46,289 nt of DNA from Candidatus Hydrothermales bacterium. GTDB lineage: Bacteria; Hydrothermota; Hydrothermia; Hydrothermales; JAJRUZ01. Shown in pieces: positions 17,655-43,955 of this stretch (the stretch's first letter is position 1; each line of letters opens with the position of its first letter). A program made the translations under genes and the position numbers. The notes below the pieces were generated by a model. It saw nothing but the letters and a program-made list of their open reading frames with translations. It made no database searches and was not told where the DNA came from. The stretch covers positions 1 through 46,289 of the forward strand of contig JBCNUW010000016.1 in the NCBI GenBank assembly GCA_039630575.1, in the 5' to 3' direction.

Positions 17655-17676
17655 TTAATTTTTTTAGTGTATATGG

Positions 17677-17689
17677 TGGAATAGAACCA
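17677..17689 (-). promoter_or_regulatory. T-arm-like leader motif upstream of rpsT
   Basis: TGG-TTCTATT-CCA; core 12 nt after TATAAT (17706-17701) and 23 nt before ATG; no SD. Confidence 0.55.
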
Positions 17690-17731
17690 TGCAGATTTTT
17701 ATTATAATAAAATTAAACCTTAAAATTAAAA

Positions 17732-18601
17732 ATGCAAATAATATTTTTTATCTTCTCATTTCAAATCGTAATATATGGAAATGAGAGATGGAACTTTGCA
17801 CGAAACGCAAGAATTGCCTCACTTGGTGAAGCCTCTTCATCCCTTATAGATCCAGGATCTTTCTTCTTTAATCCAGCTACACCTTCTCTGTTTGAAAATA
17901 AAGTAATACAAGCTACTTTCTCAAATTACTTCTCTGATGTTTTCAAATTTGGTGCCTTTAACTTTATAACAGGTGACTCAACGAATAAATTCTATGCTTC
18001 TTTTAATTATATTTTTTCCGACAACATTTATTTTACAATATATAAGGATACAACTGAGGCATATGATATAGAAAAGATTGAAAAAAGGGGATTAATTAGA
18101 GTTAGTTCAATTCACCTACTATCTGGTTTTTCAAAAAAATTAAAGAAATTTAATTTTGGTTTTTCGCTAAAAATCATGAGAGAAAATTTACATGTTGGAA
18201 AAGGTTATGGTCTTGGGATGGATGTTGGGATTTTATCAGTAAATAAATTTAACTTTTCCTTTGCTTTAAGAAACTTTTTGGGAAGTATAAACTTATGGGA
18301 TTCAGGAAGAAAAGAATATATTCCAACTTCACTGAGGATCGGTTTTTCAAAAGATTTCATAAAAAAAATCCTTTTCTCTTTTGACGTTGAATCTTATTGG
18401 GAAAAAAATTTCAAAATTTCTTGTTATGCTGGGCTTGAAACAAAAATCTTAAAAGATTTTTTTATAAGAACAGGATGGAGAGAAAATATTCCAACTTTAG
18501 GATTCGGTTTTAAGATAAAAAAATTGGATGTAGATTATGCTCTTGGAGGCAATCTTGAATTACAAGCTTTTCATGTAGTATCTCTTTCTCTTGAACTCTG
18601 A
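17732..18601 (+). CDS. PorV/PorQ-like (UPF0164) outer-membrane beta-barrel protein
   Basis: ARIASLGEA...FFNPA, alternating beta-strands, GLGMDVG, DYA...HVVSL C-terminus. Confidence 0.78.
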   Translation: MQIIFFIFSFQIVIYGNERWNFARNARIASLGEASSSLIDPGSFFFNPATPSLFENKVIQATFSNYFSDVFKFGAFNFITGDSTNKFYASFNYIFSDNIYFTIYKDTTEAYDIEKIEKRGLIRVSSIHLLSGFSKKLKKFNFGFSLKIMRENLHVGKGYGLGMDVGILSVNKFNFSFALRNFLGSINLWDSGRKEYIPTSLRIGFSKDFIKKILFSFDVESYWEKNFKISCYAGLETKILKDFFIRTGWRENIPTLGFGFKIKKLDVDYALGGNLELQAFHVVSLSLEL

Positions 18602-19166
18602 AATTAAGGGTTTTTTGTGGAGAAAAATCATCCATTCTGTATCAATAATTTTCCCTATTTTAGTTTTAACATTAGAAAAAAAATATTATTTACCTATATT
18701 TTCTTTTATAATGGGTGGATTTTTAACCGCTGATTACCTGCGTTTTGAAATAAAGTCGTTTAATATTTTTTTTAAGAGGTTCTTTGGGGAAATGATTAAG
18801 GCTAAAGAGAAAAAATTCTTCACAGGAGCAACATGGGTCTGTATATCTAGTTTTATAGTATCTCTTTTATTCCCAAAAAATATAGCTCTTATTTCTCTTT
18901 TATTTTTAACAGTATCTGACAACATTGCAAGTATAGTTGGAAAATTCTATGGTAAAAGAAAAATTTTTGAAGGGAAAACATTAGAAGGATCTCTTTCATT
19001 TTTCTTGATCTCCTTTTCTTTAACAATATTTTTTAATGAACTTCCAATTTCTAAAAAAATAATAGTATCCATTTTTGCAACTTTAATTGAGTTAATATCA
19101 TTTAATTTAGACGATAACCTAACAGTTCCTATCTCAACTGCAATTTTATTATACCTTATAGTTTGA
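18591..19166 (+). CDS. Polyprenol/phytol/diacylglycerol kinase (SEC59/DGK1/VTE5, CTP-dependent) family membrane protein
   Basis: RKIIH, SDNIASIVGKFYG, KTLEGS, DDNLTVP. Confidence 0.88.
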   Translation: MNSEIKGFLWRKIIHSVSIIFPILVLTLEKKYYLPIFSFIMGGFLTADYLRFEIKSFNIFFKRFFGEMIKAKEKKFFTGATWVCISSFIVSLLFPKNIALISLLFLTVSDNIASIVGKFYGKRKIFEGKTLEGSLSFFLISFSLTIFFNELPISKKIIVSIFATLIELISFNLDDNLTVPISTAILLYLIV

Positions 19167-19184
19167 TTTAAAATTAAAGACTAA

Positions 19185-19197
19185 AGGTTCAAATCCT
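19185..19197 (+). promoter_or_regulatory. T-arm-like leader motif upstream of the PPIase-tyrS-dxr-rseP operon
   Basis: AGG-TTCAAAT-CCT; core 11 nt after TAAAAT (19169-19174) and 20 nt before ATG 19217. Confidence 0.65.
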
Positions 19198-19216
19198 ATT
19201 AAATCTCTAATAGGTT

Positions 19217-20374
19217 ATGAAATTTTTGATTTTTCTTGTTTTTATTCAGATTGAAAAAATTGAAGAAGCTAAAAAATTGATTGAAGCTGGTAAAATAAAT
19301 GACGGAATAATTCTTTATAAGGAAGCTCTTTCGGAATTTTCGGGAGCAAAAAAAATAGAAAAGGCTATAGACTTACTGGATATTTACATAAGGTACGAAA
19401 AATTTAGAGAAGGTCTCAGTTTAATAAGTGAATTAGAGAGAAAAATCTCCAAATACAGCATTTTCTATCCAGAAATTCAATATAGAAAGGCTTTAATTTA
19501 TGAAAACTTAGGAAATTATTTAGAAGCACAAAAGATTTATGAAATGATCATTTTAAAATACAGAAAAAGTAAAGTCTACGACGATGTGAGTAAAAAAGTG
19601 GATAGGATATTTGAAATATTGAGCCAGAACTTCTTAGCCATTGTAGGACCTATGAATATTACCTATCAGGAGTTTGAGAAACACCTTGAGGCTTTACCTA
19701 TTTATTTAAGACCATCACCATCTGACACAATAGCGGTAAGGAAAACACTTGAAAACTTAATTATATCAAAGATCTTATATCTTGAAGCACTTAATGAAAA
19801 ACTTGATTTAAAAGAAGATTTTAGAGTAACTCTGGAAAAAGAAAAAGAAAAAATTTTAGCAAATTTATACCTTAAAAAAATTAATGAAGGCATAAAAGTA
19901 AAAGAAGAAGAAATAAAAGAATACTATCTTAAACATAGAGAAGATTTTAAAATACCGACAAGATGGGATATAAGAAGAATTGAAACAAAAAATGAAAATG
20001 AGGCAAGGGAAATCATGAAGAAAATAAAAAGAGGTGAAAAATTTGAGGAACTGGCAAAAAAGTTCTCTTTGGCTCCTGATGCTGAAAACGGCGGTTTCAT
20101 ACCTAACTTTACTGAAAAAAGCTTACCAGAGGAATTTATAAAATACCTTAAAACTATGAGAGAGGGAGAAATAAAGGGACCAATTAAACTTAAAAACGGT
20201 AATTATGCAATATTAAAACTTGAAAAAATTAAAAGGGGTGAATACAGAAAATTAGAGGAGGTAAAAAACCAAATAGAAAATATGATCCTAAAAGAAAGAA
20301 AAGAAAAGTTTTGGGAAAAATGGAGAAAAGGAATGTTTGAGAAATATAAAGTTAAAATTTACTTTAAAAAATGA
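19217..20374 (+). CDS. TPR-containing parvulin/PpiC-type peptidyl-prolyl isomerase (foldase)
   Basis: TPR-like helices; EIKEYY, GEKFEELAKKFS...ENGG, GEIKGPIK. Confidence 0.82.
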   Translation: MKFLIFLVFIQIEKIEEAKKLIEAGKINDGIILYKEALSEFSGAKKIEKAIDLLDIYIRYEKFREGLSLISELERKISKYSIFYPEIQYRKALIYENLGNYLEAQKIYEMIILKYRKSKVYDDVSKKVDRIFEILSQNFLAIVGPMNITYQEFEKHLEALPIYLRPSPSDTIAVRKTLENLIISKILYLEALNEKLDLKEDFRVTLEKEKEKILANLYLKKINEGIKVKEEEIKEYYLKHREDFKIPTRWDIRRIETKNENEAREIMKKIKRGEKFEELAKKFSLAPDAENGGFIPNFTEKSLPEEFIKYLKTMREGEIKGPIKLKNGNYAILKLEKIKRGEYRKLEEVKNQIENMILKERKEKFWEKWRKGMFEKYKVKIYFKK

Positions 20375-21531
20375 AAGAGGAGATAGAGATTTTAACAAGA
20401 GGAATAGAAAATATATTTACAATAGAGGAACTTGAAGAAAAGATCAAAAAGAAGAAAATTTTAACAGTTAAATATGGTGCTGACCCCTCAAAACCTGATT
20501 TACATCTTGGACACTACGTATGTCTAAGAAAACTAAAAGATTTTCAAGATTTAGGTCATAAAATAGTATTTATTATTGGTGATTTTACCGCAATGATAGG
20601 AGATCCCTCAGAAAGATCAAAAACAAGACCAATGTTGACAAGAAAAGAAGTAGAAGAAAATTCAAAAACTTACTTTGAGCAAGCCTATAAGATTTTAGAT
20701 AAAAACAAAACAGAAATAAGATTTAACAGTGAATGGCTTTCCAAGCTAACACCAGAGGATATAGTAAAACTTTCAGCTAACACTACAGTTGCAAAAATGC
20801 TTGACAGAGACGATTTTTCTGAAAGATTTAAAAAGGGTATACCAATTTCTCTTCATGAATTTCTCTATCCAATATTTCAAGCTTATGATTCAATTTATAT
20901 CAATGCCGATGTGGAAATTGGAGGGACGGACCAACATTTTAATTTCTCACTCACAAGAGAAATAATGAGGCAAATTGGACTTGAACCACAAGTTTTCATT
21001 ACACTTCCACTTTTAGAAGGCACAGATGGAAAGTTAAAGATGAGTAAATCTTATGGTAACAGTATTAATTTTCTGGACGATCCAAAAGATGTTTTTGGAA
21101 AGGTTATGTCAATACCTGATAGTTTGATCTTTAAATATTATAAGGTTGTTCTTTTGAGAGAAGACGAAGAAATTAAAGAGTATATTGAGAAAAAACCTCT
21201 TGAAGCAAAAGAAGAACTTGCTTTTTTAATAACTAAAATCTTTCATGGAGAGGAGAAAGCAATCAAAGCAAAAGAATATTTCTTTAAAACCTTTAGAAAA
21301 AGAGAAATTCCACAGGAAATTCCAGAACTAAGGATAAAAAATAAAAAAATTTTTGAAATACTCTTTGAAACAAAGATTGTTCAAAGTAAAAGTGAGGCAA
21401 AACGTTTAATAAGACAGAAAGGAGTAGATTTAAATGGAAAAACGATCGAAGATGAAAATTATGTGCCACAAAAGGGTGAACACGTTTTAAAAGTTGGGAA
21501 GAGAAAGTTTTTTAAAATAATTTTAGAATAA
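20371..21531 (+). CDS. tyrS: Tyrosine--tRNA ligase
   Basis: GADPSKPDLHLGH, QAYDS, GGTDQ, KMSKS, C-terminal S4-like domain. Confidence 0.97.
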   Translation: MKEEIEILTRGIENIFTIEELEEKIKKKKILTVKYGADPSKPDLHLGHYVCLRKLKDFQDLGHKIVFIIGDFTAMIGDPSERSKTRPMLTRKEVEENSKTYFEQAYKILDKNKTEIRFNSEWLSKLTPEDIVKLSANTTVAKMLDRDDFSERFKKGIPISLHEFLYPIFQAYDSIYINADVEIGGTDQHFNFSLTREIMRQIGLEPQVFITLPLLEGTDGKLKMSKSYGNSINFLDDPKDVFGKVMSIPDSLIFKYYKVVLLREDEEIKEYIEKKPLEAKEELAFLITKIFHGEEKAIKAKEYFFKTFRKREIPQEIPELRIKNKKIFEILFETKIVQSKSEAKRLIRQKGVDLNGKTIEDENYVPQKGEHVLKVGKRKFFKIILE

Positions 21532-22625
21532 TGAGAGTTTTTGTATTTGGAGCAACAGGTTCCATAGGTAAAAGTTTCTTTTCTCTTGTTAAAGATTTTC
21601 CTGAAATTGAAATAGTAGGTATTCAAGCCCATACAAATGCTAAAAAATTAGTTAAGATAAAGAAAAAATACAGAATTGAATATGCCTTTCTAACAGGAAA
21701 ACAAAGCGACTTTAAAGATATAATTCATGATAGAGAAAAACTAAAAGAATTTGTTACATCTAGCAGGGTAGATAAAGTGCTATTTGGAGCCTCCGGTGTT
21801 GATCTTGTTGACATATTCTTTGATCTTCTTGAAAAAAACAAAATTATATGTATGGCAAATAAAGAAATTATTGTTGCTTTTGGAGAAATAATAAAACAAA
21901 AAAACTTAAATAACCTTATTCCAGTAGATTCAGAACACTCATCGATTTTTAGAATAATTAAAAATTTAAACTTTAAAGATATAAAAAAAATAATTTTAAC
22001 TGCTTCAGGTGGTCCTCTTTATAATGTAGAAAACTCAAAACTATCCGATATAAAAGTTAAAGAAGCTCTCAAACATCCACGGTGGAAAATGGGTAAAAAA
22101 ATCACTATAGATTCAGCAACACTAATAAATAAGGGATTTGAAATAATAGAGGCACATTACCTTTTTAACATAGAACCTGAAAAAATTGAGGTTCTCTATC
22201 ATCCCGAAAGTAAAGTTCATGGAATTGTCCTACTTAATGACGGAACGTATATAGCCCATATTAGTGAATCCGACATGAGAATACCCATTTTAAACGCACT
22301 TTTTTATCCAGAAATAAAAGATTATAGAACAATGAAAAAGTTTTATGGAATTTTAAATTTTGAAAAAATAAAAAAAAGTAAAAGGAGACTCATAGACTTA
22401 TGTTTAAAGGCTTTAAAAGAAAAAAAGGGAAAACCAGCCTATTTAGTAGGTGCTGATGAAGAGCTTGTAAAGCTTTTTTTAAAGGGAAAAATAAAATTTA
22501 ATGAAATTGAAAAAATTCTTTACAGAATTTATAAAAAATCTGCTAGTGTTAATGATAAAGATTTTAATGAGATTTTAAAAGTAATTGAAATTTCAAGAAA
22601 AATGGTGTATAAAGAATTAAAATGA
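21531..22625 (+). CDS. dxr: 1-deoxy-D-xylulose 5-phosphate reductoisomerase
   Basis: GATGSIG, ANKE, PVDSEH, LTASGGP, HPRWKMGKKITIDSAT. Confidence 0.94.
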   Translation: MRVFVFGATGSIGKSFFSLVKDFPEIEIVGIQAHTNAKKLVKIKKKYRIEYAFLTGKQSDFKDIIHDREKLKEFVTSSRVDKVLFGASGVDLVDIFFDLLEKNKIICMANKEIIVAFGEIIKQKNLNNLIPVDSEHSSIFRIIKNLNFKDIKKIILTASGGPLYNVENSKLSDIKVKEALKHPRWKMGKKITIDSATLINKGFEIIEAHYLFNIEPEKIEVLYHPESKVHGIVLLNDGTYIAHISESDMRIPILNALFYPEIKDYRTMKKFYGILNFEKIKKSKRRLIDLCLKALKEKKGKPAYLVGADEELVKLFLKGKIKFNEIEKILYRIYKKSASVNDKDFNEILKVIEISRKMVYKELK

Positions 22626-23881
22626 TTTCGACAATAGCAGCCACACTAATATTACTTTCTATACTTATTTTTATACATGAATTAGGACATTTTTTAGTAA
22701 GTAAAGCTTTGAAAGTCCCGGTTGAGGAATTTTCTATTGGGTTTGGTCCTAAAATTTTCTCTTTCAAAAGAAAAGAGACAACTTTTAAAGTTTCTCTTGT
22801 GCCTTTTGGTGGTTATGTGAAAATTTTTGGTGAGGATATAGAAGGAGAAAACTCATTCTGGTTAAGACCCTTTTATGTTAAATTTTTAATTTTGATCTCC
22901 GGTGTTCTTTTTAACTTTCTTTTCGGTTTCATGATAATTTTTCTTTTGTTTTTTATTTTTGGAATAGTTGAATCGGGTCCTTATATTGATGAACCTAAAA
23001 AAAACACTCCAGCCCATATAGCTGGACTTGAATTTGGGGACCGAATATTAAAAGTAGATGGAAAAAATTTTGTAAGATGGAAGGAATTCTATGCAGTTTT
23101 TCAAGATGGTGATACCCATTTAGTTAAGGTTTTAAGAAATAACAAAGACTCTTTAGAAATAAAATTATGGGGTATATGGAATGATACTATATCAAAGTAT
23201 GAAACAGGTATTTTACCAGCCCTTTTTCCTGTAATAGGAGAGATTATTCCGGGTTTACCTGCAGAAAAAGCTGGATTAAAAAAGGGTGACACTGTATTAA
23301 GGATAGACCATACAAACATTAAAAAATGGGAGGAAATACAGAGTTTGATTGAGAATTCAGAAGGTAAAGAAATCACTGTAGAGGTAAAAAGGGAGAAAGA
23401 TACTCTGGTATTTAAAGTTAGACCTATAAAAATTAACGGTTCTTATAAAATCGGAATAAGAGCAGACATAAATATCTTAAAACTTCCTTTTTTTAAAGCC
23501 ATTATATATGCCTGGGAGGAAAGTTATTTTATAATTTACCAAACCTTTAGATTTATCTATCTTGTAATAAAAGGTAAGGCTCCACTTGAATCTTTTGGTG
23601 GTCCTGTTATGATAGGTAAGGTTGTTGGTGAGACAAAAGATAAAGGTCTTTCTTCCCTACTTTTTATACTTGCCTTTATATCAATCAATCTAGCTCTTAT
23701 TAACTTACTTCCCCTACCTGCTCTTGATGGTGGTCATTTGATTACTATTACAGTTGAAGCTATAGTAAGAAGAAGATTATCCTTTAGGATTAGATCATTA
23801 ATACAGTTAATTGGTTTTGCCCTTCTTATTTCAATATCAATTTTAATTACTATATTTGATATTCATCGTATTCTAAAATAA
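22622..23881 (+). CDS. rseP: RIP metalloprotease RseP (two PDZ domains)
   Basis: HELGH, FSIGFG, PFGGYV, NLLPLPALDGGH. Confidence 0.95.
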   Translation: MISTIAATLILLSILIFIHELGHFLVSKALKVPVEEFSIGFGPKIFSFKRKETTFKVSLVPFGGYVKIFGEDIEGENSFWLRPFYVKFLILISGVLFNFLFGFMIIFLLFFIFGIVESGPYIDEPKKNTPAHIAGLEFGDRILKVDGKNFVRWKEFYAVFQDGDTHLVKVLRNNKDSLEIKLWGIWNDTISKYETGILPALFPVIGEIIPGLPAEKAGLKKGDTVLRIDHTNIKKWEEIQSLIENSEGKEITVEVKREKDTLVFKVRPIKINGSYKIGIRADINILKLPFFKAIIYAWEESYFIIYQTFRFIYLVIKGKAPLESFGGPVMIGKVVGETKDKGLSSLLFILAFISINLALINLLPLPALDGGHLITITVEAIVRRRLSFRIRSLIQLIGFALLISISILITIFDIHRILK

Positions 23882-23883
23882 AT

Positions 23884-26800
23884 TTATATTCTTTTTAAAA
23901 TCTTCTCTTGAACGAAAACATACATAGTTGGTATAAAAACAAGACTAACTAAAAGTGAAAACGAAAGACCACCAATTACTGATAATGCAAGGGGTTTCCA
24001 AGTTTCTGAACCTTCACCTCTCAAAATTACAAGTGGAGTTAAACCCATAATTGTCGTAAAGCTTGTTATCAAGATAGGTCTTAGTCTCCTCAGGACACCT
24101 TCTTTTGTTGCATCAAGAATCTTTTTACCCTCATTCCTTAATCTCTCAACATAATCAAGCATAACAATTGCGTTGTTAACGACTATTCCTATCATCATAA
24201 TTAATCCGACAAAGGATGGTACTGAAAAGGTAGTATCAGTAAGAATATGTATCAGAGCAACTCCTGTAATTCCTGAGGGAATAGTGAACATTATTATAAA
24301 TGGTAAAAGAAAAGACTCAAACTGAGCTGCCATTACAAGATATACGATAACTATCCCAATAAGAAAGGCATAAAGTAAAATTTTAAACGATTCAGCCTGT
24401 TCCTCAGTTAATCCACCAAACTCTACTCTAAATTCACCCCTTTTACCTAAAATATTTTTAAGTTTTTCCTCTAATTCCTTTCTTATTTCACCAAGTGGTC
24501 TTCCCGAGGTTTCAGCTAAAACCTTAATAACTCTTTCTTTGTTTTCTCTCTCTATAGATAAAGGTGAAAAACTCTTTTCAAATCTGAAAATATTACCTAT
24601 ATAAAGCTTTTTATCTACAAGAGGGAAAGAGATAAATGGTAAAATTTCCTTATTTTTTCTATAATCTTCTTCAATTAATATTTTTATGTCAAGTTCCCTA
24701 TTACCAATTTTTAAGACTCCTACCTTTTCCCCAAAATTTAAACTTCTTAAGTATGCCCCCAAAGAAGATGAATATAAACCTAACTTTGAAATTTTATCTC
24801 TATCTGGAATCAAAAGATACTCAGGTAAATTTTTTTCTCTCGTTGTCCTTATGCTTCTTATTCCTTTCGTATTTTTGAGTATTTCTTTTACGTACTCAGC
24901 TATAGAATCAGTTACATTGAAGTCTTCTCCATATATCAAAATTTGAATGGGTGCTCCAAATCCTTGAATTATATTTTGTAAGTTTCCAGAGGATAGAACT
25001 TGGAAAGATTTTATTCCTGGGATCTTTTTTATCTCATTTTCTAAAAATTCTGAAATTTCAAAAATACTCCTATTTCTCTGATCTTTACTGCCGATGTTTA
25101 TAAAGAAAAAACCTGTATTTTCACCCTCCACAACACCCATCACACTTAAAAAGCCTGATTCTGATCTTCCAACTCTTGCTGTAAAATACTTTACCTCCTC
25201 AATGTTAGATATTATATCTTCTATGATTTTTGAAACAGAATCTGTAACTTCAAACTTAGTACCAGGCGGAAGAATAAAATTTCCCCTTAATTCTCCTGAG
25301 TCAGATTCAGGGAAAAATTCAGTTTTTACAGAACCAGTTAAAAATAACAAAATTCCAAAAACAAAAAGTAAAAAACCAAATAAGAGAGTTAAAAATTTTC
25401 TACTTATTGCTAAATCTATGGTTTTTCTGTAAAAATCTTTAAGTTTCTCGAACAAATAAAATAGAATTCCTTTCTCTTCTGGTATTTTTTTTATAATTAT
25501 TCTTGAAAGAGTAGGAGTGAGTGTTAAACTAACAAGCAAGGATGTCAAAAGTACCGTAGTAACCATCAAGGCAAGTTGTCTAAACATTATTCCAACAAAC
25601 CCAGTTCCAACAACAAGAGGACCAAAAATAGCAATAGTTGTGAGAGTTGAGGCAAGAATTGGGGTAAAAACTTCAATTGCACCTTTGTAAGCAGCCTCTA
25701 AAGGATTTTCACCTTTTTCTCTTTTAAAAAAGATATTTTCAAGAACCACCACAGCATTATCAACAACCATTCCAGCAGCTAATGCCAAAGCTGAAAGTGA
25801 AATTATGTTAATTGAACCTCCTGTTAGCTTCAAAACTATAAAACCTACAAGTAATGAAAAAGGTATGGTTACGGCAATCACGAAACTTGATGATAGATGT
25901 CTGAGAAAAATTAAGGTAACAATAAAAATAAAGAGAACAGCCCAGTATATAGTATTTGTTAAATTTTGAATTGATGCTCTTATAAACCTTGAAATATCAT
26001 TCACAACTTTTAATTCTATCCCCGGATAATCCTTTAAAATCCTGTCTATCTCTTTTTTTACTCTTTCAGAAACCAAAACAGTATTTGCACCAGACTGTTT
26101 TAGTATCCCAAACAAAATTGAAGGCGTCTTTTTACTTCTAACTTTTGTTATAACATCATCGTAGCTAATTTTTACATCGGCTATCTCGCTAAGTTTATAA
26201 ACACCTCTACCTTTTATATGTATCGGAATATTTTTAATTTCCTCAAGAGAAGAAAATTTTGAATTTACCTTAGCACTGATTGAAAAGTTATGATCTTCAA
26301 CATTTCCAATAGGGACATTTATGTTCTCTCTTAAAAGTGTTTCTTTTATTAAAAATGGTGTTATACCGTATTCCTCTATGTATTTTTTCTTTAATTCTAT
26401 TTTAACTATTTCCCTCCTTCCACCCCCCCAGTACTGAACTTCACCAACACCTGGAATTCTTCTGAGTCTTTCAAAAATTTCATTTTCAAAGAAAAAAAGC
26501 AAATCGAAAAGTGTATCTTTAACTGAAAAGGTTCCTACTAATATTGGTATCTGAGTAAGATCAAATTTAAAAACTTTAGGAATCTCTACATCTTCCGGAA
26601 GAAAAAATTTTGCAAATTCAATCCTTGTTCTTATGTCATCGGCAGCTTTATCAATATCTGTTCCCCAATCAAATTCAACTGTAACAGCTGAAATATCTTG
26701 AATTGACAGAGATCTTATTTTTGTAACATTCGGTGCAGTGGATACAGCATCTTCTATATATTTTGTAACTTCTCTTTCAACTTCTTCAGGAGAAGCACCA

Positions 26801-26949: not shown

Positions 26950-26950
26950 T

Positions 26951-27811: not shown

Positions 27812-27825
27812 CAAAAACCTCCTTT

Positions 27826-29106: not shown

Positions 29107-29135
29107 TTTAGCCTCCTTATTTAATATTTAAAAAT

Positions 29136-32048: not shown

Positions 32049-32055
32049 AGATTAC

Positions 32056-32084: not shown

Positions 32085-32100
32085 ATAATAAAAATTTCAC

Positions 32101-32544: not shown

Positions 32545-32562
32545 GGCATTTCTTAATTTAGG

Positions 32563-32573
32563 GGATTTGAACC
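32563..32573 (-). promoter_or_regulatory. T-arm-like leader motif upstream of the Spy/CpxP-like gene
   Basis: GG-TTCAAAT-CC, 18 nt before ATG 32544; no SD. Confidence 0.6.
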
Positions 32574-32584
32574 TTTTATTTATA

Positions 32585-32613
32585 TTAGACGAAATTTAAA
32601 ATAAATTTGTTCA
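32585..32613 (-). promoter_or_regulatory. ECF sigma-type promoter
   Basis: TGAACA-16 nt-CGTCTAA (AAC/CGT signature). Confidence 0.55.
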
Positions 32614-32632
32614 TTTTTTATAATTATTTAAA

Positions 32633-33670: not shown

Positions 33671-33683
33671 TTTTCCTTATAAT
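33656..33683 (+). promoter_or_regulatory. sigma70-type promoter
   Basis: TTGACA-16 nt-TATAAT then AAGGAG SD. Confidence 0.7.
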
Positions 33684-33700
33684 ATTTAAAAAAGGAGAAA

Positions 33701-36178: not shown

Positions 36179-36224
36179 CTTAAATTTAAAAGTTATGTTT
36201 TTGTTAATTAAATGAAATACTAAA

Positions 36225-36791
36225 ATGGAGCCAAAAGAAATACTTGAAAAATTAGAAGTTTTAAAAAGGGGACATTTTCTTTTAACAAGTGGCAATCATT
36301 CAGATGTTTATTTTGAAAAATTCAGAATATTATCCCATCCTACAGAACTTAAAAAACTTCTTGAATTTTCTTACGATTTCATAAAAAAAATTGATTTTGA
36401 AATTATTGTAGGACCCTTCACAGGTGGTGCCATAATTGCAGTAATCCTTGCACTTTTGCTTGATAAAAAAGCAATATTTGCTGAAAAAGAAAATGACAAA
36501 TTCGTAATACGAAGGGATTTCTCAATAAAACCTAACTCAACTTGTTTAGTAGTAGATGATGTAATAACAACAGGGGGTTCAATTATAAAGACTATGAAAG
36601 CTTGTGAAAATATTTTAAAAGTTAACGGAATACTTGTTCTTATAGACAGAAGAGAAAAAGAGGAAAATTTCGAAATACCCTTTTATGCAATTTACAAACA
36701 AAAAGTCAAGATATTTCCTCCAGAGGAATGCCCACTTTGCAAGGAAAATATACCTCTTGAGATACCAGGAGGTAAAAGGAAAGAGGTATAA
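36225..36791 (+). CDS. pyrE: Orotate phosphoribosyltransferase
   Basis: GHFLLTSGNHSDVYFEK, LVVDDVITTGGS, C-terminal CPLC...PGG. Confidence 0.93.
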   Translation: MEPKEILEKLEVLKRGHFLLTSGNHSDVYFEKFRILSHPTELKKLLEFSYDFIKKIDFEIIVGPFTGGAIIAVILALLLDKKAIFAEKENDKFVIRRDFSIKPNSTCLVVDDVITTGGSIIKTMKACENILKVNGILVLIDRREKEENFEIPFYAIYKQKVKIFPPEECPLCKENIPLEIPGGKRKEV

Positions 36792-36805
36792 AGAGTTCAA
36801 AAATA

Positions 36806-37492
36806 TTAAATTAAGTGAATAAAGTCATGTATTAAAAAGTAAATTCTCCCAATTAAAAGCGAGATTCTTGCCATTACTGTATAGCCAAAAGCTGCGCCGA
36901 AACCGATCATTATAAAAATAATACCGACCTTTGCAAATGCCTTTAAAGGACCCTTATGCTCTTTTGAAAAGAAGAAATATGATAAAACAGTAAAAGTTCC
37001 TATAAAAATAATTAGGGAATTTAAAAAGTAAACTGTTTGTGAAAATTGAGGTAAGAACGTATCTTTGACTTGATCGAATATCCTTGCTTTAAAAGTTGGG
37101 TAAAGGGAAAGACCTGAGCCTATTCCCATCAGAAAGGCAATTGGGTATCTTATGAGCCAAGAATATCTTGGAAATAGAAGAGAAAAAAACAAAAGACCAA
37201 AAGAAAGGGGAACAAGATACATAATAAATGAAAAAAAAGCTGAAACAGTAGAGATATTCACAAAAGCTTCTGGCCATATTATTTTATAATAAAAAATTGA
37301 AAATTTCTCAGAGAGGGGTTTTACAATAAATCTTAAAATAGCATTATGCCAGTAAATAGAAGCGTAATAACCAGCCGAAACTCCCACAAAGAGGTGTTCA
37401 GCAAATTTATAAACTGGATTATCTTTAAATAAAAAAGAAAAAATTGCAAGTGTTAAAAAGGCACTTATCCATACCCAGGGATCTAAACTCAT
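36806..37492 (-). CDS. Uncharacterised multi-pass membrane protein (cluster gene 4)
   Basis: About 6 TM segments; LTLAIFSFLFKDNPVYKFAEHLFVGVSAGY, GFGAAFGYTVMARISLLIGR. Confidence 0.85.
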   Translation of the reverse strand: MSLDPWVWISAFLTLAIFSFLFKDNPVYKFAEHLFVGVSAGYYASIYWHNAILRFIVKPLSEKFSIFYYKIIWPEAFVNISTVSAFFSFIMYLVPLSFGLLFFSLLFPRYSWLIRYPIAFLMGIGSGLSLYPTFKARIFDQVKDTFLPQFSQTVYFLNSLIIFIGTFTVLSYFFFSKEHKGPLKAFAKVGIIFIMIGFGAAFGYTVMARISLLIGRIYFLIHDFIHLI

Positions 37493-38310
37493 TTTCTCCT
37501 CCTTCTTTTTAAAAAATAGGAAATATTACCCAATATAACAAGTAAAACCATGACAAAATTTGCAAGAGAGATTGAGTTCATACCTTTTGTTGCAAGGTTA
37601 TGTGCAGCTAATAACTTTTCATATTCAGCTGCTCCTCTCATTCCACCGATTAAACCTATGAACTGTCTACTTCTATAGTATGGATAAAGTTGGGCAGCCA
37701 TTACAGCGGTAACTCCTGCAGCAACATTAGCATTGTATCTCCCGTTAGCATAAACCATCCATGATTCAGGAATTGCCGCACCAGATATTGTTATAATAAG
37801 TTTTATATCCTCATAATTTTTTACACCCTTGAAGGCTTCAATTTCATCAAAGGGAACCCCAAAATAATCAGATTTAAAAACATTTTTTATATCCTCGCCA
37901 ATCCCCAAAATAGTTGCAGCTATGGAAGGAAAGTAACCAACAAACACAATATCCTTCCTCTCAACTAAATTAAATTCTTTTAATATTTTGTTGTAAACAT
38001 CAAGAGCAAAGCCTGCACCTGCTGGGTAGAGTGTCATTATATAAATCCTTAACTTCTTCCTTGCCAAATGTTTAGCCAAAACTAAGGACATGGGATAGCA
38101 CTCTGGTAAAACATCAGGAGAATAATCAAAGGATAAAATAACAGGTGTACCTTCAGGTAAACTTTCTATAAAATCATAAACATCCTTTACTGGCTTTAAT
38201 ACTTTAAGAGGTAATAAGAATTTAAAAAGTAGTGGTATGAAAACAGCAAGACCTATAAGAATAAAAATTACAAAACGTGGTATATTTAAGAGCCTATCTA
38301 TAAGACTCAT
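37489..38310 (-). CDS. Uncharacterised membrane-anchored protein (cluster gene 3)
   Basis: N- and C-terminal TM helices around a soluble alpha/beta region; YPYY...GLIGGMRGAAEYE. Confidence 0.85.
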   Translation of the reverse strand: MSLIDRLLNIPRFVIFILIGLAVFIPLLFKFLLPLKVLKPVKDVYDFIESLPEGTPVILSFDYSPDVLPECYPMSLVLAKHLARKKLRIYIMTLYPAGAGFALDVYNKILKEFNLVERKDIVFVGYFPSIAATILGIGEDIKNVFKSDYFGVPFDEIEAFKGVKNYEDIKLIITISGAAIPESWMVYANGRYNANVAAGVTAVMAAQLYPYYRSRQFIGLIGGMRGAAEYEKLLAAHNLATKGMNSISLANFVMVLLVILGNISYFLKRRRRK

Positions 38311-38918
38311 TCAAGCCAACTCCTTTCAATTCCAAGCATAATCTTTAAGGAAGTAGCAAGAATTCCAAGAGCTATTCCGAGAGTAATTCCTCTCTGAGCA
38401 GCAAGATTAGGAACATCTAAAATCCATTGAGCTAAAGAGGGTAGCTTATCTGAGATTATGTCTCCAAAAGATGTAAAACCTATCATTAAAATGAAGGCGG
38501 AAAGTAAAAGAAGTGTGCTTTCTAAATTTCTAGCTCTGAAGGCACGATAAGAGGCAGAAGCCATGTAAAAAGCAAGTAAGGAAAAGGTTGTAGCATTTAA
38601 GGGCACCATCACATATTCATAAATTTTATCAAAGGTAGATCCTTTACCTATTCCAAAGAAAACACCAAGGATTATCATTCCATAGAGTGAAACCAGAGTA
38701 ACAAATGAATAAAAGACATTCTTACCTCTTTTTAAGTTATGAAAATGCCTTCTTGTAAGAGAGATAACAGCCATAATAATTGCCATCCCTTGAACACCTT
38801 GAAACCATTCGAGAAGTAAAGTGTATACTGATTTAGAAAGTGGACCCACAATAAAGTATTGTAGAAATCCTATAGTTCCGATGAAAAACACAATAAATAT
38901 TGGAATTTCTTTTTTCAT
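38307..38918 (-). CDS. Uncharacterised multi-pass membrane protein (cluster gene 2)
   Basis: PLNATTFSLLAFYMASASYRAFRARN, PNLAAQRGI, LKIMLGIER. Confidence 0.85.
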   Translation of the reverse strand: MKKEIPIFIVFFIGTIGFLQYFIVGPLSKSVYTLLLEWFQGVQGMAIIMAVISLTRRHFHNLKRGKNVFYSFVTLVSLYGMIILGVFFGIGKGSTFDKIYEYVMVPLNATTFSLLAFYMASASYRAFRARNLESTLLLLSAFILMIGFTSFGDIISDKLPSLAQWILDVPNLAAQRGITLGIALGILATSLKIMLGIERSWLE

Positions 38919-39688
38919 TTGGGAAATAAAAATTCTAAAAGATTTTCTCTTCCTATAAAACTCAGGAATCCGCCAATAAGAATAAGAAAACCGATTAAAA
39001 ATTTCATTGCATCTTGAGATCTTATAGTTGAAACAAGAATGGGTTCACCAGAAAGATAGGCACTTGCAGCGTAGAATTCCTCTCCTATTAAGGTGTAATC
39101 ACAGGCAGTTACAAAAAATGGTAGCTGTGTAATTGCGTCTGTCCCAGCTATTTGAATTGCGCCCGTTGAAGCACCAGTTTCTGCGAGTAAAAGTGATTCA
39201 GCCCAGAACATACCCATAAAAAAGTTGGTACTTGTTTTTTCTCTAACCATCAATCCGCACACTGCAGCAGCATAACCAAATTGGGAATCAGTGATGTAAA
39301 AAATTGAGTCTTCTTTAAAGAGATCTGGCCTTCCTATTGAAGCATAGGCTTGTTTAACAACCTCTTTAGCTACTGTGTAAACAACAGGATTTCTATTCGG
39401 AACTATAATATCAGTTTCATACTCACCTGATTTTTTTGAAACTCTTGACAAAATGTTCAAAGAAGCTATGGTCGCTACATCATCAATTGTGGAAAGTCCT
39501 GGTACATATAAAATAGGTCTACCCATCTCAGTAGCCCTACCTATAGCCTCATCAACCGCTTCAATGCCTGGTATTTTCCTTAAAAAAAGTTTTTCTCCTT
39601 TTCTTGCCCTTGAAATATAATAAAGAAGAAAAAAAACATAGATTAAAACTGAGAAGAAAACTGGTAACTTTGCAAAATCAATTCCCAT
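38915..39688 (-). CDS. DUF6754-like membrane-anchored protein (cluster gene 1)
   Basis: LRKIPGIEAVDEAIGRATEMGRP, AESLLLAETG, QLPFFVTACDYTLIGEEFYAASAYL. Confidence 0.8.
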   Translation of the reverse strand: MGIDFAKLPVFFSVLIYVFFLLYYISRARKGEKLFLRKIPGIEAVDEAIGRATEMGRPILYVPGLSTIDDVATIASLNILSRVSKKSGEYETDIIVPNRNPVVYTVAKEVVKQAYASIGRPDLFKEDSIFYITDSQFGYAAAVCGLMVREKTSTNFFMGMFWAESLLLAETGASTGAIQIAGTDAITQLPFFVTACDYTLIGEEFYAASAYLSGEPILVSTIRSQDAMKFLIGFLILIGGFLSFIGRENLLEFLFPK

Positions 39689-39689
39689 A

Positions 39690-40085
39690 TTAGTATACCT
39701 TTTTTATTTCAACTTTATCTTTAATTATTTCAAATATTTTTCTTTTATAAGCTAAAGTTATTTTAAATTTCAAATTCTTTTCAAATTTTTCTACATTTAT
39801 TGGAGAGAGAGGGATTTTAAAAATATATACATTTTCTTTGTTTTTAGTAAAGGGCACTTTTAGTTCAAAATCGTCAAAAAGGATTTTAATTTCTTTTAAC
39901 TGAGGATCTTTCTGAAAACTACCTTTAATTTCTAAAATTCCCTTTATATTTCGAGGGTGCTGTATAGGTGAAGGCATCAAATCTAAAAAAATAACTAAAT
40001 TAATATCAAAATCTGATGGAAGATTAACAGAGTTTATACAAAATTTTAGTAAGAAGAGGTATAATAAAAAATATTTATTTACCAA
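39690..40085 (-). CDS. Hypothetical exported protein (likely start TTG 40085; track start 40121 overlaps the EF-G gene)
   Basis: Open frame filling the gap; basic plus hydrophobic N-terminus ending in Cys. Confidence 0.5.
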   Translation of the reverse strand: MVNKYFLLYLFLLKFCINSVNLPSDFDINLVIFLDLMPSPIQHPRNIKGILEIKGSFQKDPQLKEIKILFDDFELKVPFTKNKENVYIFKIPLSPINVEKFEKNLKFKITLAYKRKIFEIIKDKVEIKKVY

Positions 40086-40089
40086 AATT

Positions 40090-42090
40090 TTATGTTTCTT
40101 TTTCTTTTCTTGCTTGCTCAATTATCTTTTGAGCAAGTTCCTTTGGAACCTCATCGTAGTGACTAAACTTTGCAAAATAAACAGCCTTTCCTTTAGCAAT
40201 AGATCTCAAAGAACTTGAGTACCCATAAAGCTCTGCAAGTGGAACATAAGCTTTGATTTTTTGTTTTTTCTTTCCTATAGGTTCCATGCCAAGAATTCTA
40301 CCCCTCCTTGAATTGAGATCACTCATAACATCACCCATAATTTCTTCAGGAACAATCACTTCAACTTCATAGATTGGTTCAAGTAAATAAGAATCAGCAT
40401 TCATTTGAGCATCTCTAAATGCCATAGATCCTGCTATTTCAAAGGCAATATTTGAAGAATCAACTGGGTGATACTTTCCATCATAAAGTTCAACTCTTAC
40501 ATCGATAACAGGGAAACCAGCAAGAACACCACTTTGCATTGCTTTTTTAATTCCTGTTTCTACTGATGGTATAAAGTTTGATGGTATTGCGCCGCCGAAT
40601 ATGGAATTTATGAACTCATATTCCTTACCTCTCGGAAGAGGCTCAATTCTTATGTTACATATACCATACTGACCTCTCCCTCCTGATTGCTTTACATACT
40701 TTCCCATAGCCTCAGCTTTTTTCCTTATTGTTTCTCTATAGGGAATTTTAGGTTTTGTTTGAGTGACCTCAACACCGTATCTTCTTTTCATTTTTGAAAC
40801 AATGACATTAAGATGAATCTCCCCAAGACCTTCTATAATTGTCTGTTTTAGCTCAGGGTTATAATGAAAAGAGAAAGTTGAGTCTTCAGCAGCAAGTTTT
40901 TTTAAAGCCTCAGAAACCTTTTCTTCATCTTGCTTAGTTTTTGGAATTACAGCAACCTGAACACTTCTCCATGGAAAGTCTATTTCAGGGTAAATAACAA
41001 CATCATCTATTGAACAAAGTGTATCATTTGTATGGGTATCTTTAAGTTTTACTATAGCACCAATCTCTCCTGTTTTTAACTCATTAATCTCTTTTCTTTC
41101 TTTACCAAGTACATGATAAAGGGATGTTATTTTTTCTCTTATTTCTCTTTTAGGGTTTAAAAGTTCTGTTCCTGTTTTAATAGATCCTCTTAAAACCCTT
41201 ATATAATTTATCTCTCCGAGATGAGGGTCACTCATGGTTTTAAAAACAAATCCAACAGAACTTCCATCTTCAGCTGGACTTATTTCTACTTCTTTTCCAT
41301 CTTTAGTTCTCCCTTTTCTTGGAATTAATTCGTTATATGAGGGAAAAAATTCAGTTACAAATTCGATAAATTCATTAATTCCTTTATCATCTAAGGAATC
41401 ACCAAAAAATACAGGTACAATGAGGCCTTCCTTTATGCCTTTCTTTATTGCATATTTAATCTCGGACGGAGAAATTTCACCCTTTTCAAGATATTTTTCA
41501 ACAAGATTTTCATCAAGCTCAACTATTGACTCCATAGTCTCTTCCTTTTCTTTTGTCCATCCCTCTGGAGCTTCTTCAAAAATTGTTTTAACTCCCATAA
41601 AGGATTCACCTTCTCCAATTGGAAAAGTTAGAAGAACAAATTTCTTTTCGAATGTATTTCTCAAAACTTTTAGGACTTCCTTTATATTAACATTTTCCGA
41701 TTTCATTTTTGTTATAAAGACTGCTGCTGGAATACTTCTCTCAAAGACCTTTTCACCGTAGATTTCAGTTCCCACTTCTACACCACCTGAAGCACTTATC
41801 ACAAGACATACAATATCAGTTATGTGAATACCCGAGAGAAACTCTCCTTGAAAATCGATAAAACCAGGGCAATCAAGCAAAAAAATCTTCTCTCCCTTAT
41901 TTTCAAAATGAGCTATTCCTAAATTTATAGTAATTTTTCTTTCCTGTTCTTCTGGGTCATAGTCTAATATACTTGTACCTTCATCAGTCCTTCCCAATCT
42001 TGAGGTTATCTTTTGGTTAAATAATATTCTCTCACACAGTGTTGTTTTTCCACAACCTGAGTGTCCAACAAAAAGTAAAGCTTTTGCCAT
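40090..42090 (-). CDS. fusA: Elongation factor G paralogue (EF-G2-like)
   Basis: Start ATG 42090; GHSGCGKTT, DCPG, GLGEIHL, PYRETI, KQSGGRGQYG, DGKYHPVDSS, LLEPI; not in an rpsL-rpsG-tuf operon. Confidence 0.92.
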   Translation of the reverse strand: MAKALLFVGHSGCGKTTLCERILFNQKITSRLGRTDEGTSILDYDPEEQERKITINLGIAHFENKGEKIFLLDCPGFIDFQGEFLSGIHITDIVCLVISASGGVEVGTEIYGEKVFERSIPAAVFITKMKSENVNIKEVLKVLRNTFEKKFVLLTFPIGEGESFMGVKTIFEEAPEGWTKEKEETMESIVELDENLVEKYLEKGEISPSEIKYAIKKGIKEGLIVPVFFGDSLDDKGINEFIEFVTEFFPSYNELIPRKGRTKDGKEVEISPAEDGSSVGFVFKTMSDPHLGEINYIRVLRGSIKTGTELLNPKREIREKITSLYHVLGKERKEINELKTGEIGAIVKLKDTHTNDTLCSIDDVVIYPEIDFPWRSVQVAVIPKTKQDEEKVSEALKKLAAEDSTFSFHYNPELKQTIIEGLGEIHLNVIVSKMKRRYGVEVTQTKPKIPYRETIRKKAEAMGKYVKQSGGRGQYGICNIRIEPLPRGKEYEFINSIFGGAIPSNFIPSVETGIKKAMQSGVLAGFPVIDVRVELYDGKYHPVDSSNIAFEIAGSMAFRDAQMNADSYLLEPIYEVEVIVPEEIMGDVMSDLNSRRGRILGMEPIGKKKQKIKAYVPLAELYGYSSSLRSIAKGKAVYFAKFSHYDEVPKELAQKIIEQARKEKET

Positions 42091-42116
42091 TACAAAAAAC
42101 TTCAATTTTAATTTTT

Positions 42117-42131
42117 GAGGATTTGAACCTC
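42117..42131 (-). promoter_or_regulatory. T-arm-like leader motif upstream of the EF-G paralogue
   Basis: GAGG-TTCAAAT-CCTC; core 13 nt after TAAAAT (42148-42143) and 28 nt before ATG 42090; no SD. Confidence 0.68.
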
Positions 42132-42193
42132 TTTGTTTTATCATTTTAAAGAGGTAAGTTAGTTATTATAACTCAAAAGTAATAATTAATAAA

Positions 42194-42676
42194 ATGAGAA
42201 TTGGACGATTTGAAGTTATGGCTACCCTACAAGCTGCAAGAGCTTTTTGTCTTGGTAAATCTTTAATTGAGTCAAAGAGTTTTGGATTAAACAGGGCAAT
42301 ATTTTATGCTGCTGCTAAAAGAGGCTTCAAAGTTAAAGTAAAAAATGGAGAATTTAGGGAAAGAAAGTTTAAAAAATTAGAAAAAGAACATATTCTAACA
42401 GATAAGATAGGAGATGAAGAAGCTTTTTATGTTGAAATTGAGGGTAAAAAATATTATGTAATAGGTGGTGAAATTCTCACAGAAAAAATTTTTGAAAAGC
42501 AGATTGAAAAAAAGTTTAAAAGTAAGTGGAATATTTTCTTTGAAGAAGCTTTAGATATTTTAAGATCTTTTGAAAAAGACAATTTACTTTCCCAAAGAAA
42601 GTTTTATGAAAAAATTTACAAACCTTTAAGAGATAAGCTTGTAGTAAAATGGAATGAAAAACTAAAAGAAATATAG
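42194..42676 (+). CDS. Hypothetical protein
   Basis: 160-aa ORF with native codon style; GRFEVMATLQAARA...AIFYAAAK. Confidence 0.75.
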   Translation: MRIGRFEVMATLQAARAFCLGKSLIESKSFGLNRAIFYAAAKRGFKVKVKNGEFRERKFKKLEKEHILTDKIGDEEAFYVEIEGKKYYVIGGEILTEKIFEKQIEKKFKSKWNIFFEEALDILRSFEKDNLLSQRKFYEKIYKPLRDKLVVKWNEKLKEI

Positions 42677-42887
42677 TTTTTTTTGAACATTAGCCACTCA
42701 TAATTATAAGAACTTCTACAATATCACCAAAAAGTTTATGGAATATTCTGTGATGAGGTACATCCCTCAAATTCTATAGTTTTGTAAAGATTTTGTCTAA
42801 AATATGTTAAACGTCCTTTTTCTGATTTAAAGGTAGAAATATAAAACTTTTTATTTTTGTATGATATCTATAGGTTCAAGGTAAAAA

Positions 42888-43103
42888 TCACTCCAAAATT
42901 TCAATTTCACCCTCATCGCCAACAAAGCCAGTTTCTTTATGGGAGCCATCACAGAAAGGTTTATTTTTACTATGTCCACATCTACATAAAGAAAAAAGAT
43001 TGAATTCTTTCTCCTCTACAATTTCACCTTTTTTAATTTTTACTTTCCTTAATCTATTGAAGTTAATAACAAGGGGTCCGTTCTTTTTAAAATTTATTTT
43101 CAT
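42888..43103 (-). CDS. CDGSH iron-sulfur domain protein
   Basis: NGPL...LCRCGHSKNKPFCDGSH. Confidence 0.94.
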   Translation of the reverse strand: MKINFKKNGPLVINFNRLRKVKIKKGEIVEEKEFNLFSLCRCGHSKNKPFCDGSHKETGFVGDEGEIEILE

Positions 43104-43120
43104 AATTTTTCTAATTTCAA

Positions 43121-43135
43121 AGGGACTTGAACCCT
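43121..43135 (-). promoter_or_regulatory. T-arm-like leader motif upstream of the CDGSH gene
   Basis: AGGG-TTCAAGT-CCCT; core 19 nt before ATG 43103; downstream of TTGACA(43174-43169)-17 nt-TAAAGA; no SD. Confidence 0.68.
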
Positions 43136-43955
43136 ATGTTTATTATCTTTACATCTTTCACTTGTACTTGTCAAATAAAAAGAAGTATTTTTTTAGGCAA
43201 GAACAAAAGAAAATTTAGATAAAAATTTTTTAATTTTATTAGATATGTTTCCTCAGGCCTATTCTGGCATCAGTTGGCAATCCGGATTTACTTTAAAAAG
43301 CATGTTGATATGAGATTTTATTCATTCAAAATCTTCTTTATATTAGTGAAACATCTTTTAAGGGGAGTATTAGCATCTTTACTTTCTAAATTATCTTTAC
43401 CTTCTAATTTTTCTTCATTTTGTTCAAGTAAATTTTTTTTACCTATATAGAAAATTTAACAACTCTTCTTTAAAAATTGTTAAAATATGATCATATCTCA
43501 AAAAAAAGCAAAAATCAAATATTATCTGTATAAAGTAGTTATATTCTTTAAGGTGGTATATAAAATTATTGCTTTAAAAAAATCATTTCCAAATTCCTTT
43601 TTATTTAAATAATCTTATGTTATGATCTTTTATTAATCAAAAATTTTAGAAAATAGTAAATGTTATAGCAAAAATAAAAGAACTGATTGTCTTACTCTCA
43701 GATTAAAACTAAAACTGAGTTTCGTTAATTTTACTCTTAAACTTTCAGATTTATCTTCGATATTGAATAACTTTTCATAATATAAGCATTAATTGAAAAA
43801 TAAAAAGTAACAATAATAAACAAAGTTTTTCACTTAGTATATAAATGGAATGAAACTTTTTTAATCAAGTCAAAAATAAGATTTTAATTAAGGCTTTTTT
43901 AAATTTGAGACTTATTCTTTAAAATTAGTTTATAATAAACAAAAGGAGGTGTAAT

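Follow-up and report, generated by a model that had tools for sequence, protein, structure and literature searches.

A T-loop-like leader hairpin as a candidate translation-initiation element in one family of uncultured bacteria of candidate division WOR-3

The contig JBCNUW010000016.1 of a Candidatus Hydrothermales bacterium, a stretch of 46,289 nucleotides referred to here as the window, carries ahead of five of its genes a short sequence resembling the T-arm of transfer RNA (tRNA). The same leader hairpin mostly occupies the place of a conventional ribosome-binding site in a sister family, and it therefore looks like an undescribed initiation signal. On comparative sequence evidence we regard it as probable that the hairpin is a family-specific positive element of translation initiation, which recruits the ribosome and has replaced Shine–Dalgarno (SD) sites. 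An earlier note on this DNA had offered two readings, replacement of the SD through tRNA mimicry and a modification or stability tag at mRNA 5′ ends. An RNA-level T-loop mimic in the place of the sister-family SD is borne out by the comparisons given below, while the proposed exclusivity with the SD is not.

Distribution of the leader element

The source genome bin (G000, of which the window is contig C8) comprises 1.89 Mb at 30% GC, and the closest named relatives of the elongation factor G (EF-G) paralogue in the window are from candidate division WOR-3 (79–84% identity). Genomes G001–G005 belong to the same family (f1) as G000 and G006–G010 to a sister family (f2). The G006 data cover 1.95 of ∼2.06 Mb (about 95%), and counts for G002 and G005 refer to partial samples of 400 kb and 346 kb. 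Gene starts are those of our own open reading frame (ORF) caller and are blind to the motif, except in an early strand tally, which took the candidate start closest to a distance of 21 nt, making the distance table of that tally sharper. Two contigs of G010 (C31 and C38; L300 and L301) belong to family f1 and have the motif ahead of infC and of one other gene. The G010 infC product agrees with that of G000 at 59 of 72 residues and with that of G006 at 45, and the bin contains two 16S and two 23S types. G010 is thus a mixed bin and is not usable as an outgroup.

The core pattern GGTTCNANTCC matches the window nine times, compared with 0.32 matches expected by chance, and none of 100 shuffles reached nine. 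These are five leaders, three tRNAs (Leu, Glu and Val) and one match antisense to tyrS. All five leader cores described earlier were recovered at the same positions and on the same strands, with the same spacers to the ATG, and the antisense match in tyrS was recovered as well (Table 1). Across G000 the strict pattern occurs 157 times: in 43 tRNAs, in 94 sense leaders (up to 60 nt from a start), in one antisense leader, in 10 coding sequences (CDS) and at nine other places. The genome-wide scan that the earlier note had proposed thus yields enrichment of both position and strand. Antisense matches in CDS interiors are at the level of chance (20 observed, 18.0 expected). With a relaxed core, GG-UUCNANN-CC (GGTTCNANNCC or AGTTCNANNCT, 15–36 nt before a start, tRNAs excluded), the element precedes 119 of 1,748 genes in G000 (roughly one in fourteen), 28 of 371 in G002 and 26 of 349 in G005, compared with 3 of 1,814 in the sister-family genome G006. 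Some 17 more G000 leaders carry single-position variants. Orthologous leaders retain the motif both in G002 (24 of 26 cases) and in G005 (11 of 13). The target genes are functionally unrelated housekeeping genes, apparently including, as judged from their N-termini, tuf, rpsL, rplL, rpsO, infC, frr, efp, groES and dnaK.

The range within the phylum was followed with an A/T-flanked core, which drops most tRNAs and would under-count the motif in GC-richer genomes. Each of six family genomes contains 49–83 copies and the other 266 WOR-3 genomes contain 0–11. Six of nine low-copy matches inspected in the latter lie in or antisense to CDS or lack a downstream start, and two come from the mixed bin. 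Of 40 assorted genomes, 38 have no more than six copies; the WOR-3 records L001 and L002 exceed this number. A scan of at least 114 viral loci revealed no evident contig with the motif in several leaders. At least 30 of at least 119 metagenome loci scanned hold a leader-like copy; in the 19 of these inspected, the multi-copy cases were organelle-type tRNA clusters or four contigs nearer to G000 than to G006. In these sequences the element is real, selected and confined to one family. A lone non-tRNA core lies 17 nt before an ATG on a metagenome contig of 43% GC that is unrelated to G000 (L447:3001-3034, three near-identical loci); it may be either a chance match or an independent case.

Sequence signature of a folded RNA

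The consensus of the element is G52-G53-U54-U55-C56-N-A58-N-Y-C61-C62, with an optional third pair and an A/U-rich spacer after it. The pair G53–C61 was found 125 times compared with 37 in a control window. Among 142 leader loops with this pair, the next pair (52:62) is G–C in 122, A–U in seven, U–A in one and C–G in one. The third pair, 51:63, is of Watson–Crick type in 76 of 119 copies, whereas shuffling the flanks between copies gives 42.1±4.7 (maximum of 2,000 shuffles, 59), and it exceeds expectation in two relatives as well (15 of 28 against 8.9, and 18 of 26 against 9.9). The covariation suggested as a check in the earlier note is therefore present at this pair. Beyond it, pair 50:64 is at chance in G000 (55 compared with 51.3 when shuffled) and likewise in G005, and pairs 49:65 to 47:67 (59, 48 and 44 of 142) do not depart from the expected 49.6, 53.6 and 50.4 in a way that would indicate an acceptor stem. 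The stem is 2 or 3 bp long in 72 of 119 copies, 36 having only 2 bp, rather than the 5 bp of a tRNA. Of 35 orthologue pairs compared at 51:63, seven show two-sided changes that preserve pairing, 11 are otherwise paired, two are unpaired without change and 15 are broken or unpaired. The third pair is thus favoured and not required.

No leader variants at U54 or A58 were found in G000. Variants at C56, in contrast, number 14 compared with none in the control window, and there are a few of the U55C type; variants at 55 and 56 have longer stems (4.2 compared with 3.5 bp, P=0.02). A pyrimidine occupies position 57 in 25 of 119 copies, whereas none of 47 tRNA or transfer-messenger RNA (tmRNA) arms has one there; U60 is present in 90 of 119 copies. 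In the available text of PMC6418473, the signature of the T-loop fold is a U54–A58 pair stacked on G53–C61. The invariant U54 and A58 together with G53–C61 are, as letters, this signature, and the strand bias of 94 sense to one antisense leader adds to the indications that the element is read as RNA. The hairpin, having 2–4 bp and being the minimum-energy fold in one of five window leaders, is too weak to stand alone, which points to a partner.

Relationship to Shine–Dalgarno sites

The anti-SD is intact (GAUCACCUCCUUU in three of three family 16S genes), and SD sites are kept by 408 of 1,748 G000 genes (23%). No full complement of the core was found in the three family 16S genes. The exchange between the two elements is seen across families, in 748 reciprocal best pairs of G000 and G006 with matching starts. 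G000 genes with the motif and no SD have an SD in 53 of 58 G006 orthologues, compared with 121 of 490 for genes with neither (P=9e-24); where the upstream gap is at least 25 nt the figures are 43 of 48 and 32 of 133. Conversely, when the G006 gene has an SD, the SD survives in G000 in 12 of 65 motif genes and in 138 of 259 others. The share of genes with either SD or motif, among non-leaderless genes with gaps of at least 25 nt, is 215 of 523 in G000 and 258 of 611 in G006. In the rpsU leader the hairpin is a clean 15-nt insertion before a retained SD, present in four of four family members and in none of three sisters.

The window leaders largely follow this pattern. None contains a properly spaced SD by our rule, as the earlier note had observed, and four of the five genes have an SD-bearing best match in G006. 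The best matches of the peptidyl-prolyl isomerase (PPIase; 34% identity) and of a 147-aa protein (35%) carry AAAGGAGG and AAAGGAGGT, respectively, and the CDGSH orthologue carries AAGGAGGT. Orthologues of the EF-G paralogue have the motif upstream in L001 and L002, compared with GGAGG in G006. The sister-family orthologue of rpsT has only a weak AAAGGA.

Position relative to the start codon and promoter

The spacer between core and start codon is 15–35 nt with a mode of 20, and 62 of 63 starts confirmed by a G006 orthologue lie at least 17 nt from the core. Ten ATGs situated 4–15 nt after a core are not the chosen starts, and copies that also have an SD show a minimum spacer of 21 nt. The floor of ∼17 nt lies close to where the 30S footprint ends upstream.

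The relation to promoters is looser. A −10-like site lies 5–24 nt upstream in 20 of 35 divergent copies (control window, 8), in 19 of 48 wide co-directional gaps (control, 2) and in 3 of 36 tight gaps (control, 2). In the window a −10-like hexamer 11–13 nt upstream of the core, which the earlier note had described for every leader, is clear for rpsT, PPIase and the EF-G paralogue and less so for the other two. As a general rule this distance does not hold, since the gap ranges over 6–23 nt in the genome and 33 of 36 tight-gap copies lack a −10. Nor is the element restricted to 5′ ends just after a promoter, as those same tight-gap copies and 21 copies overlapping the upstream CDS demonstrate. 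The loose or missing −10 and the overlap with upstream genes indicate that the element is linked more closely to the start codon than to the promoter. Separately, genes of leaderless type (a −10-like hexamer 5–8 nt before the start) number 253 of 1,748 in G000 and 158 of 1,814 in G006.

T-arms of real tRNAs show a related spacing. Eighteen of 47 tRNA and tmRNA T-arms in G000 lie 20–27 nt before the next start, none of these genes having an SD, compared with 7 of 44 in G006 (P=0.02). This spacing suggests an origin for the leader element and a reader that would accept a T-loop in its tRNA context. Two tmRNA genes were encountered in G000. One, on contig C22 (about 16270-16435, −), has its 3′ end cut by the contig end, lies directly before tRNA-Leu and is similar to the end of the G006 tmRNA. 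The other is complete and different (G000:C35:4000-4357, tag ANDYAYAQAA), on a small contig beside an ORF that we take by eye to be an integrase. Its 3′ end recurs on C83, and it is either on a foreign contig or in an integrated element.

Search for a reader

Candidate readers were sought among proteins and RNAs that contact T-arms or the ribosomal platform. TruB is single-copy in 21 of 21 genomes, family members showing no more than a short acidic tail. In G005, which has the motif, the TruB frame (L084, G005:C48) stops after 247 codons, short of the C-terminal domain; this argues weakly against that domain as a tether, truncation or an assembly frameshift being possible. TrmI, TrmFO and bS1 were unremarkable in five genomes, and uL1 has no extension in 16 sequences. 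Ribosomal protein bS21 shows a family-specific C-terminal extension and an F/Y-to-H change (six compared with eight sequences), and is kept as a lead only. So are family-specific changes in 16S ribosomal RNA (rRNA) around one helix, presumably h23. G000 itself has no assembled 16S or 23S gene. The tip of what we take to be 23S helix 68 is 23–28 nt longer in three of three family genomes than in four others; this is not diagnostic, as it is long in 63 of 272 WOR-3 genomes, including ones without the motif, and short in 29. In none of the 10 loci examined (L093-L103) does a 23S gene come after the 16S gene, and the 23S genes of G005 (C100) and G006 (C1:87538-91462) are 800–900 nt longer than others, which suggests introns or intervening sequences.

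Among G000 proteins without a G006 match, 33 of 445 were scanned against Pfam, through the loci of relatives. An RNase Z-like gene (L439:38-775; G000:C78:10557-11294) encodes a 245-aa metallo-hydrolase without the central arm region, has a leaderless-type start and is present in six of six family and none of five sister-family genomes. It was rejected as the reader, as 23 of the 29 carriers among 272 WOR-3 genomes have no motif. A protein with a zinc ribbon, a membrane helix and several OB folds (L154:8323-9639; G000:C11:33891-35222) is found in six of six family genomes and in none of 58 others in the class; given that a membrane-like helix precedes the OB folds and that similar proteins occur in other phyla, it is not likely to be an mRNA reader.

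Features of the window

The stems of the window hairpins are those reported earlier, with outer pairs AGG/CCT, GAGG/CCTC, AGGG/CCCT and TGG/CCA, and the copy at 32573 has 2 bp only (Table 1). The gene names rpsT, PPIase, tyrS, EF-G paralogue and CDGSH are upheld, while 'Spy/CpxP-like' for the 147-aa protein finds no support in Pfam or NCBIfam. The EF-G paralogue starts at 42090 and not at the longest-ORF ATG, 42144, as the sister orthologue aligns from residue 21 to its residue 2. A search of the window against Rfam returned the three tRNAs and no family for the leader hairpins.

Table 1. Positions of leader hairpins, tRNAs and related features in the window.
Feature	Position	Strand	Remarks
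T-loop hairpin before rpsT	17677..17689, core 17688-17678	−	3-bp stem; 23 nt to ATG 17654; Pfam S20
−10-like hexamer TATAAT	17701..17706	−	12 nt before rpsT core; putative promoter, from sequence
T-loop hairpin before PPIase-tyrS operon	19185..19197, core 19186-19196	+	20 nt to ATG 19217
T-loop core, 2-bp stem	32563..32573	−	18 nt to ATG 32544; 147-aa protein, no recognised family
T-loop hairpin before EF-G paralogue	42117..42131, core 42129-42119	−	4-bp stem; 28 nt to ATG 42090
T-loop hairpin before CDGSH protein	43121..43135, core 43133-43123	−	4-bp stem; 19 nt to ATG 43103
tRNA-Val(GAC)	17296..17372	−	T-arm 17318-17308, 24 nt before SD-less ATG 17283 of cNMP-binding gene; among the 18 tRNAs of G000 with this arrangement
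tRNA-Glu(TTC)	16653..16730	−	T-arm 40 nt before ATG 16625, beyond the usual distance range
tRNA-Leu(CAA)	6900..6986	+	T-arm 28 nt before SD-bearing start
Core match inside tyrS	20977..20987	− (antisense)	taken as chance

Three ORFs of 160, 289 and 191 aa at 42194-42676 (+) and 17732-19166 (+) have no Pfam family, and the 160-aa ORF also has no match in NCBIfam or G006. The window encodes a Tpt1/KptA RNA 2′-phosphotransferase (44673-45212, +). An RtcB ligase (L131:9017-10555) is present in G000/G002, with no match in the retrieved part of G006.

Discussion

We propose that the leader hairpin would fold as a T-loop, with the U54–A58 pair stacked on G53–C61, and that its 2–4 bp stem would be held folded by a partner situated on the ribosome, or attached to it, immediately outside the mRNA channel. 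The message would thereby be tethered, and the first AUG beyond about 17 nt would reach the P site with no need for SD pairing. In leaders that also have an SD, the hairpin, lying further out, may add to it. The probability that we assign to this initiation role is divided among three kinds of partner, each of them doubtful when taken singly. Proteins of the 30S platform such as bS21 or bS1 are the first guess; an L1-stalk or E-site elbow pocket of a 70S ribosome, and a separate adaptor protein, which might be a T-arm enzyme, are both less likely than that, and equally so. The element may have originated from T-arms of real tRNAs upstream of SD-less genes, a latent route that would then have been copied into ordinary leaders. 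A more specific proposal, which we hold tentatively and judge a little likelier to be wrong than right, is that the ribosome itself grips a minimal mRNA T-loop, in its platform or L1-stalk pocket, as a ruler that places the AUG ∼20 nt downstream, tRNAs serving likewise and being the evolutionary source.

Several observations weigh against an initiation role. The search for a specific reader yielded no candidate among TruB, TrmI, TrmFO, bS1, uL1 and IF3, and no new domain. The description of the motif genes as SD-less fails as a genome-wide trait, as 28 of 119 carry both elements and the anti-correlation with SD anticipated by the earlier note is absent within the genome: an SD precedes 27 of 133 motif genes and 323 of 1,538 others with tRNA arms still included, and 23 of 92 and 106 of 414, respectively, without coupled, leaderless-like and tRNA cases. 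With the anti-SD intact and so many genes retaining an SD, nothing forced the change. The cross-family comparison uses one outgroup genome, G006, and its direction is assumed from the absence of the motif elsewhere in the phylum. The hairpin is the minimum-energy fold in one of the five window leaders, that of the CDGSH gene, under an energy model that lacks the U–A trans pair; the 36 two-pair copies are a further difficulty, and about as many orthologue pairs have 51:63 broken or unpaired as keep it paired. By a codon-bias proxy, motif genes show no higher expression. Compact gene packing could explain part of the tRNA-arm spacing.

A modification or stability tag, the other reading in the earlier note, appears unlikely as the main function; the loop would in this case be modified or occupied by TruB, TrmFO or TrmI, the mRNA being thereby protected or marked and SD loss being secondary. 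It has in its favour that the core is the GUUCNANNC consensus and that TruB modifies 3-bp stem-loops in vitro (PMC13492117, available text), that TrmFO needs only a stem-loop, G53–C61 and U54U55C56 (PMC6418473, available text), and that all three enzymes are encoded. The TruB determinant, GUUCNANNC in a stem-loop, is carried by the 119 copies by construction and the TrmFO determinants by the canonical copies. In addition, a −10 is situated 7–22 nt before 39 of the 83 copies that occupy divergent or wide gaps. Against it, U55C and changed-C56 variants are kept although they lack those determinants, many copies are operon-internal, and the three enzymes are single-copy and common to motif-free relatives; neither the 17-nt floor nor the loss of SDs is explained. 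A 5′ roadblock would moreover have no evident enzyme to block, as no RNase J was found over cut-off in five of five genomes searched. TrmI wants U60 and is helped by the acceptor stem or variable region, micro-helices being slow substrates (available text of PMC6418473), and GUΨCG is given as a main pseudouridine motif in bacterial mRNA (PMC13236023, likewise). Whatever role the element plays, modification of many of its copies is probable.

The same positional and structural data would fit a global regulator with CsrA-like logic, a protein or RNA that binds the T-loop and switches about 130 genes by condition, and the quarter of copies that coexist with an SD could be accommodated. Yet the targets are unrelated, loss of the SD is not what a repressor would select for, the hairpin stays clear of the ribosome footprint rather than covering it, and the proteins scanned included no candidate, which together make such a regulator improbable. 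Still less probable is a processing guide, in which RNase Z or RNase P would cut about 11 nt past the hairpin and leave a short-leader, leaderless-like mRNA. Leaderless-type starts are indeed common, real tRNAs without encoded CCA lie at the same distance, RNase P RNA is present and the short RNase Z-like gene is restricted to the family in the comparison with its sister. The leader hairpins nevertheless lack the acceptor stem on the T-stem that marks RNase P and RNase Z substrates, pairs 50:64 to 47:67 being at or near chance. A cut at +11 would leave leaders of 6–14 nt and, in several copies that have an SD (gaps 7–11 nt), would pass through that SD; coding interiors show no depletion of the motif (14 compared with 9.4). 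The RNase Z-like protein also skips model region 150–200, which we take to be the tRNA-binding arm, and its gene occurs in motif-free genomes. A DNA-level element, either a downstream promoter element or a transcription factor site like the eukaryotic Pol III B box, whose letters are those of the core, often lies a few bases after a −10 but is highly improbable given the loose or missing −10, flanks that covary as base pairs where a promoter or B box would have fixed spacing without covariation, the strand bias and the tie to start codon and SD loss.

If the hairpin does act in initiation, it would be a fourth bacterial mode beside SD-led, leaderless and bS1/unstructured initiation. How start codons are chosen without an SD is a standing question in bacteria, and a survey of SD-independent start choice names, in its available text, leaderless mRNA, bS1 and low structure and no defined structured signal (PMC5397173). 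In this family SDs appear to have given way, one gene at a time, to a short, countable element, the sister family serving as a control. Acting on the ribosome, it would be an initiation signal read by shape, with tRNA-binding surfaces reused for mRNA recruitment, and could be of use as an orthogonal translation signal and in improving start-codon calls for the lineage; as a modification tag it would instead represent a selected, genome-wide bacterial mRNA modification code. Our literature search found no T-loop element before bacterial start codons, the supplementary motif tables of start-site surveys being outside its reach.

Judged by its sequence features, the element does not appear to belong to any known system compared. 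With the tRNA T-arm (part of Rfam RF00005) it shares G53–C61, U54, U55, C56, A58, a 7-nt loop and a preferred G52–C62 with A–U as a minor form; unlike the T-arm it has a stem of 2–4 rather than 5 bp, no acceptor stem or D-loop partner, and a place in mRNA leaders. Like the SD, it is a short cis element at a bounded upstream distance from many unrelated genes, and on the same orthologous genes. However, it lies 17–30 nt away (the SD, 5–13), has a folded shape, may coexist with an SD and finds no complement at the 3′ end of 16S rRNA, where CCUCC is retained. tRNA mimics are found in leaders and internal ribosome entry sites (IRESs), such as the Escherichia coli thrS operator, which mimics the anticodon arm and represses, and the dicistrovirus intergenic-region IRES. 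As with these, mimicry would engage the translation machinery, although such mimics and elbow readers are large and single-gene and the leader element spans 11–15 nt before about 130 genes. Readers of the tRNA elbow with interdigitated T-loops include RNase P, the T-box and the L1 stalk (PMC4919913, available text), the last being a candidate pocket here. In Bacteroidia, non-SD initiation is attributed to sequestration of the anti-SD by bS21, bS18 and bS6 (PMC7797042, available text). The lineage-wide shift from SD with an intact anti-SD and the family-specific bS21 changes are similar. In the present family, however, SD sites are not nearly absent outside rpsU/rpsR, being kept by nearly a quarter of genes, and a defined hairpin, of which the available text of that study contains no counterpart, marks the non-SD genes. 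Finally, the mRNA sites of TRUB1/Pus4 are scattered and eukaryotic (PMC13492117, available text), whereas the leader hairpins are fixed before bacterial starts and tolerate loss of U55 or C56; the two share an identical consensus and a short stem, and leader copies are plausible TruB substrates.

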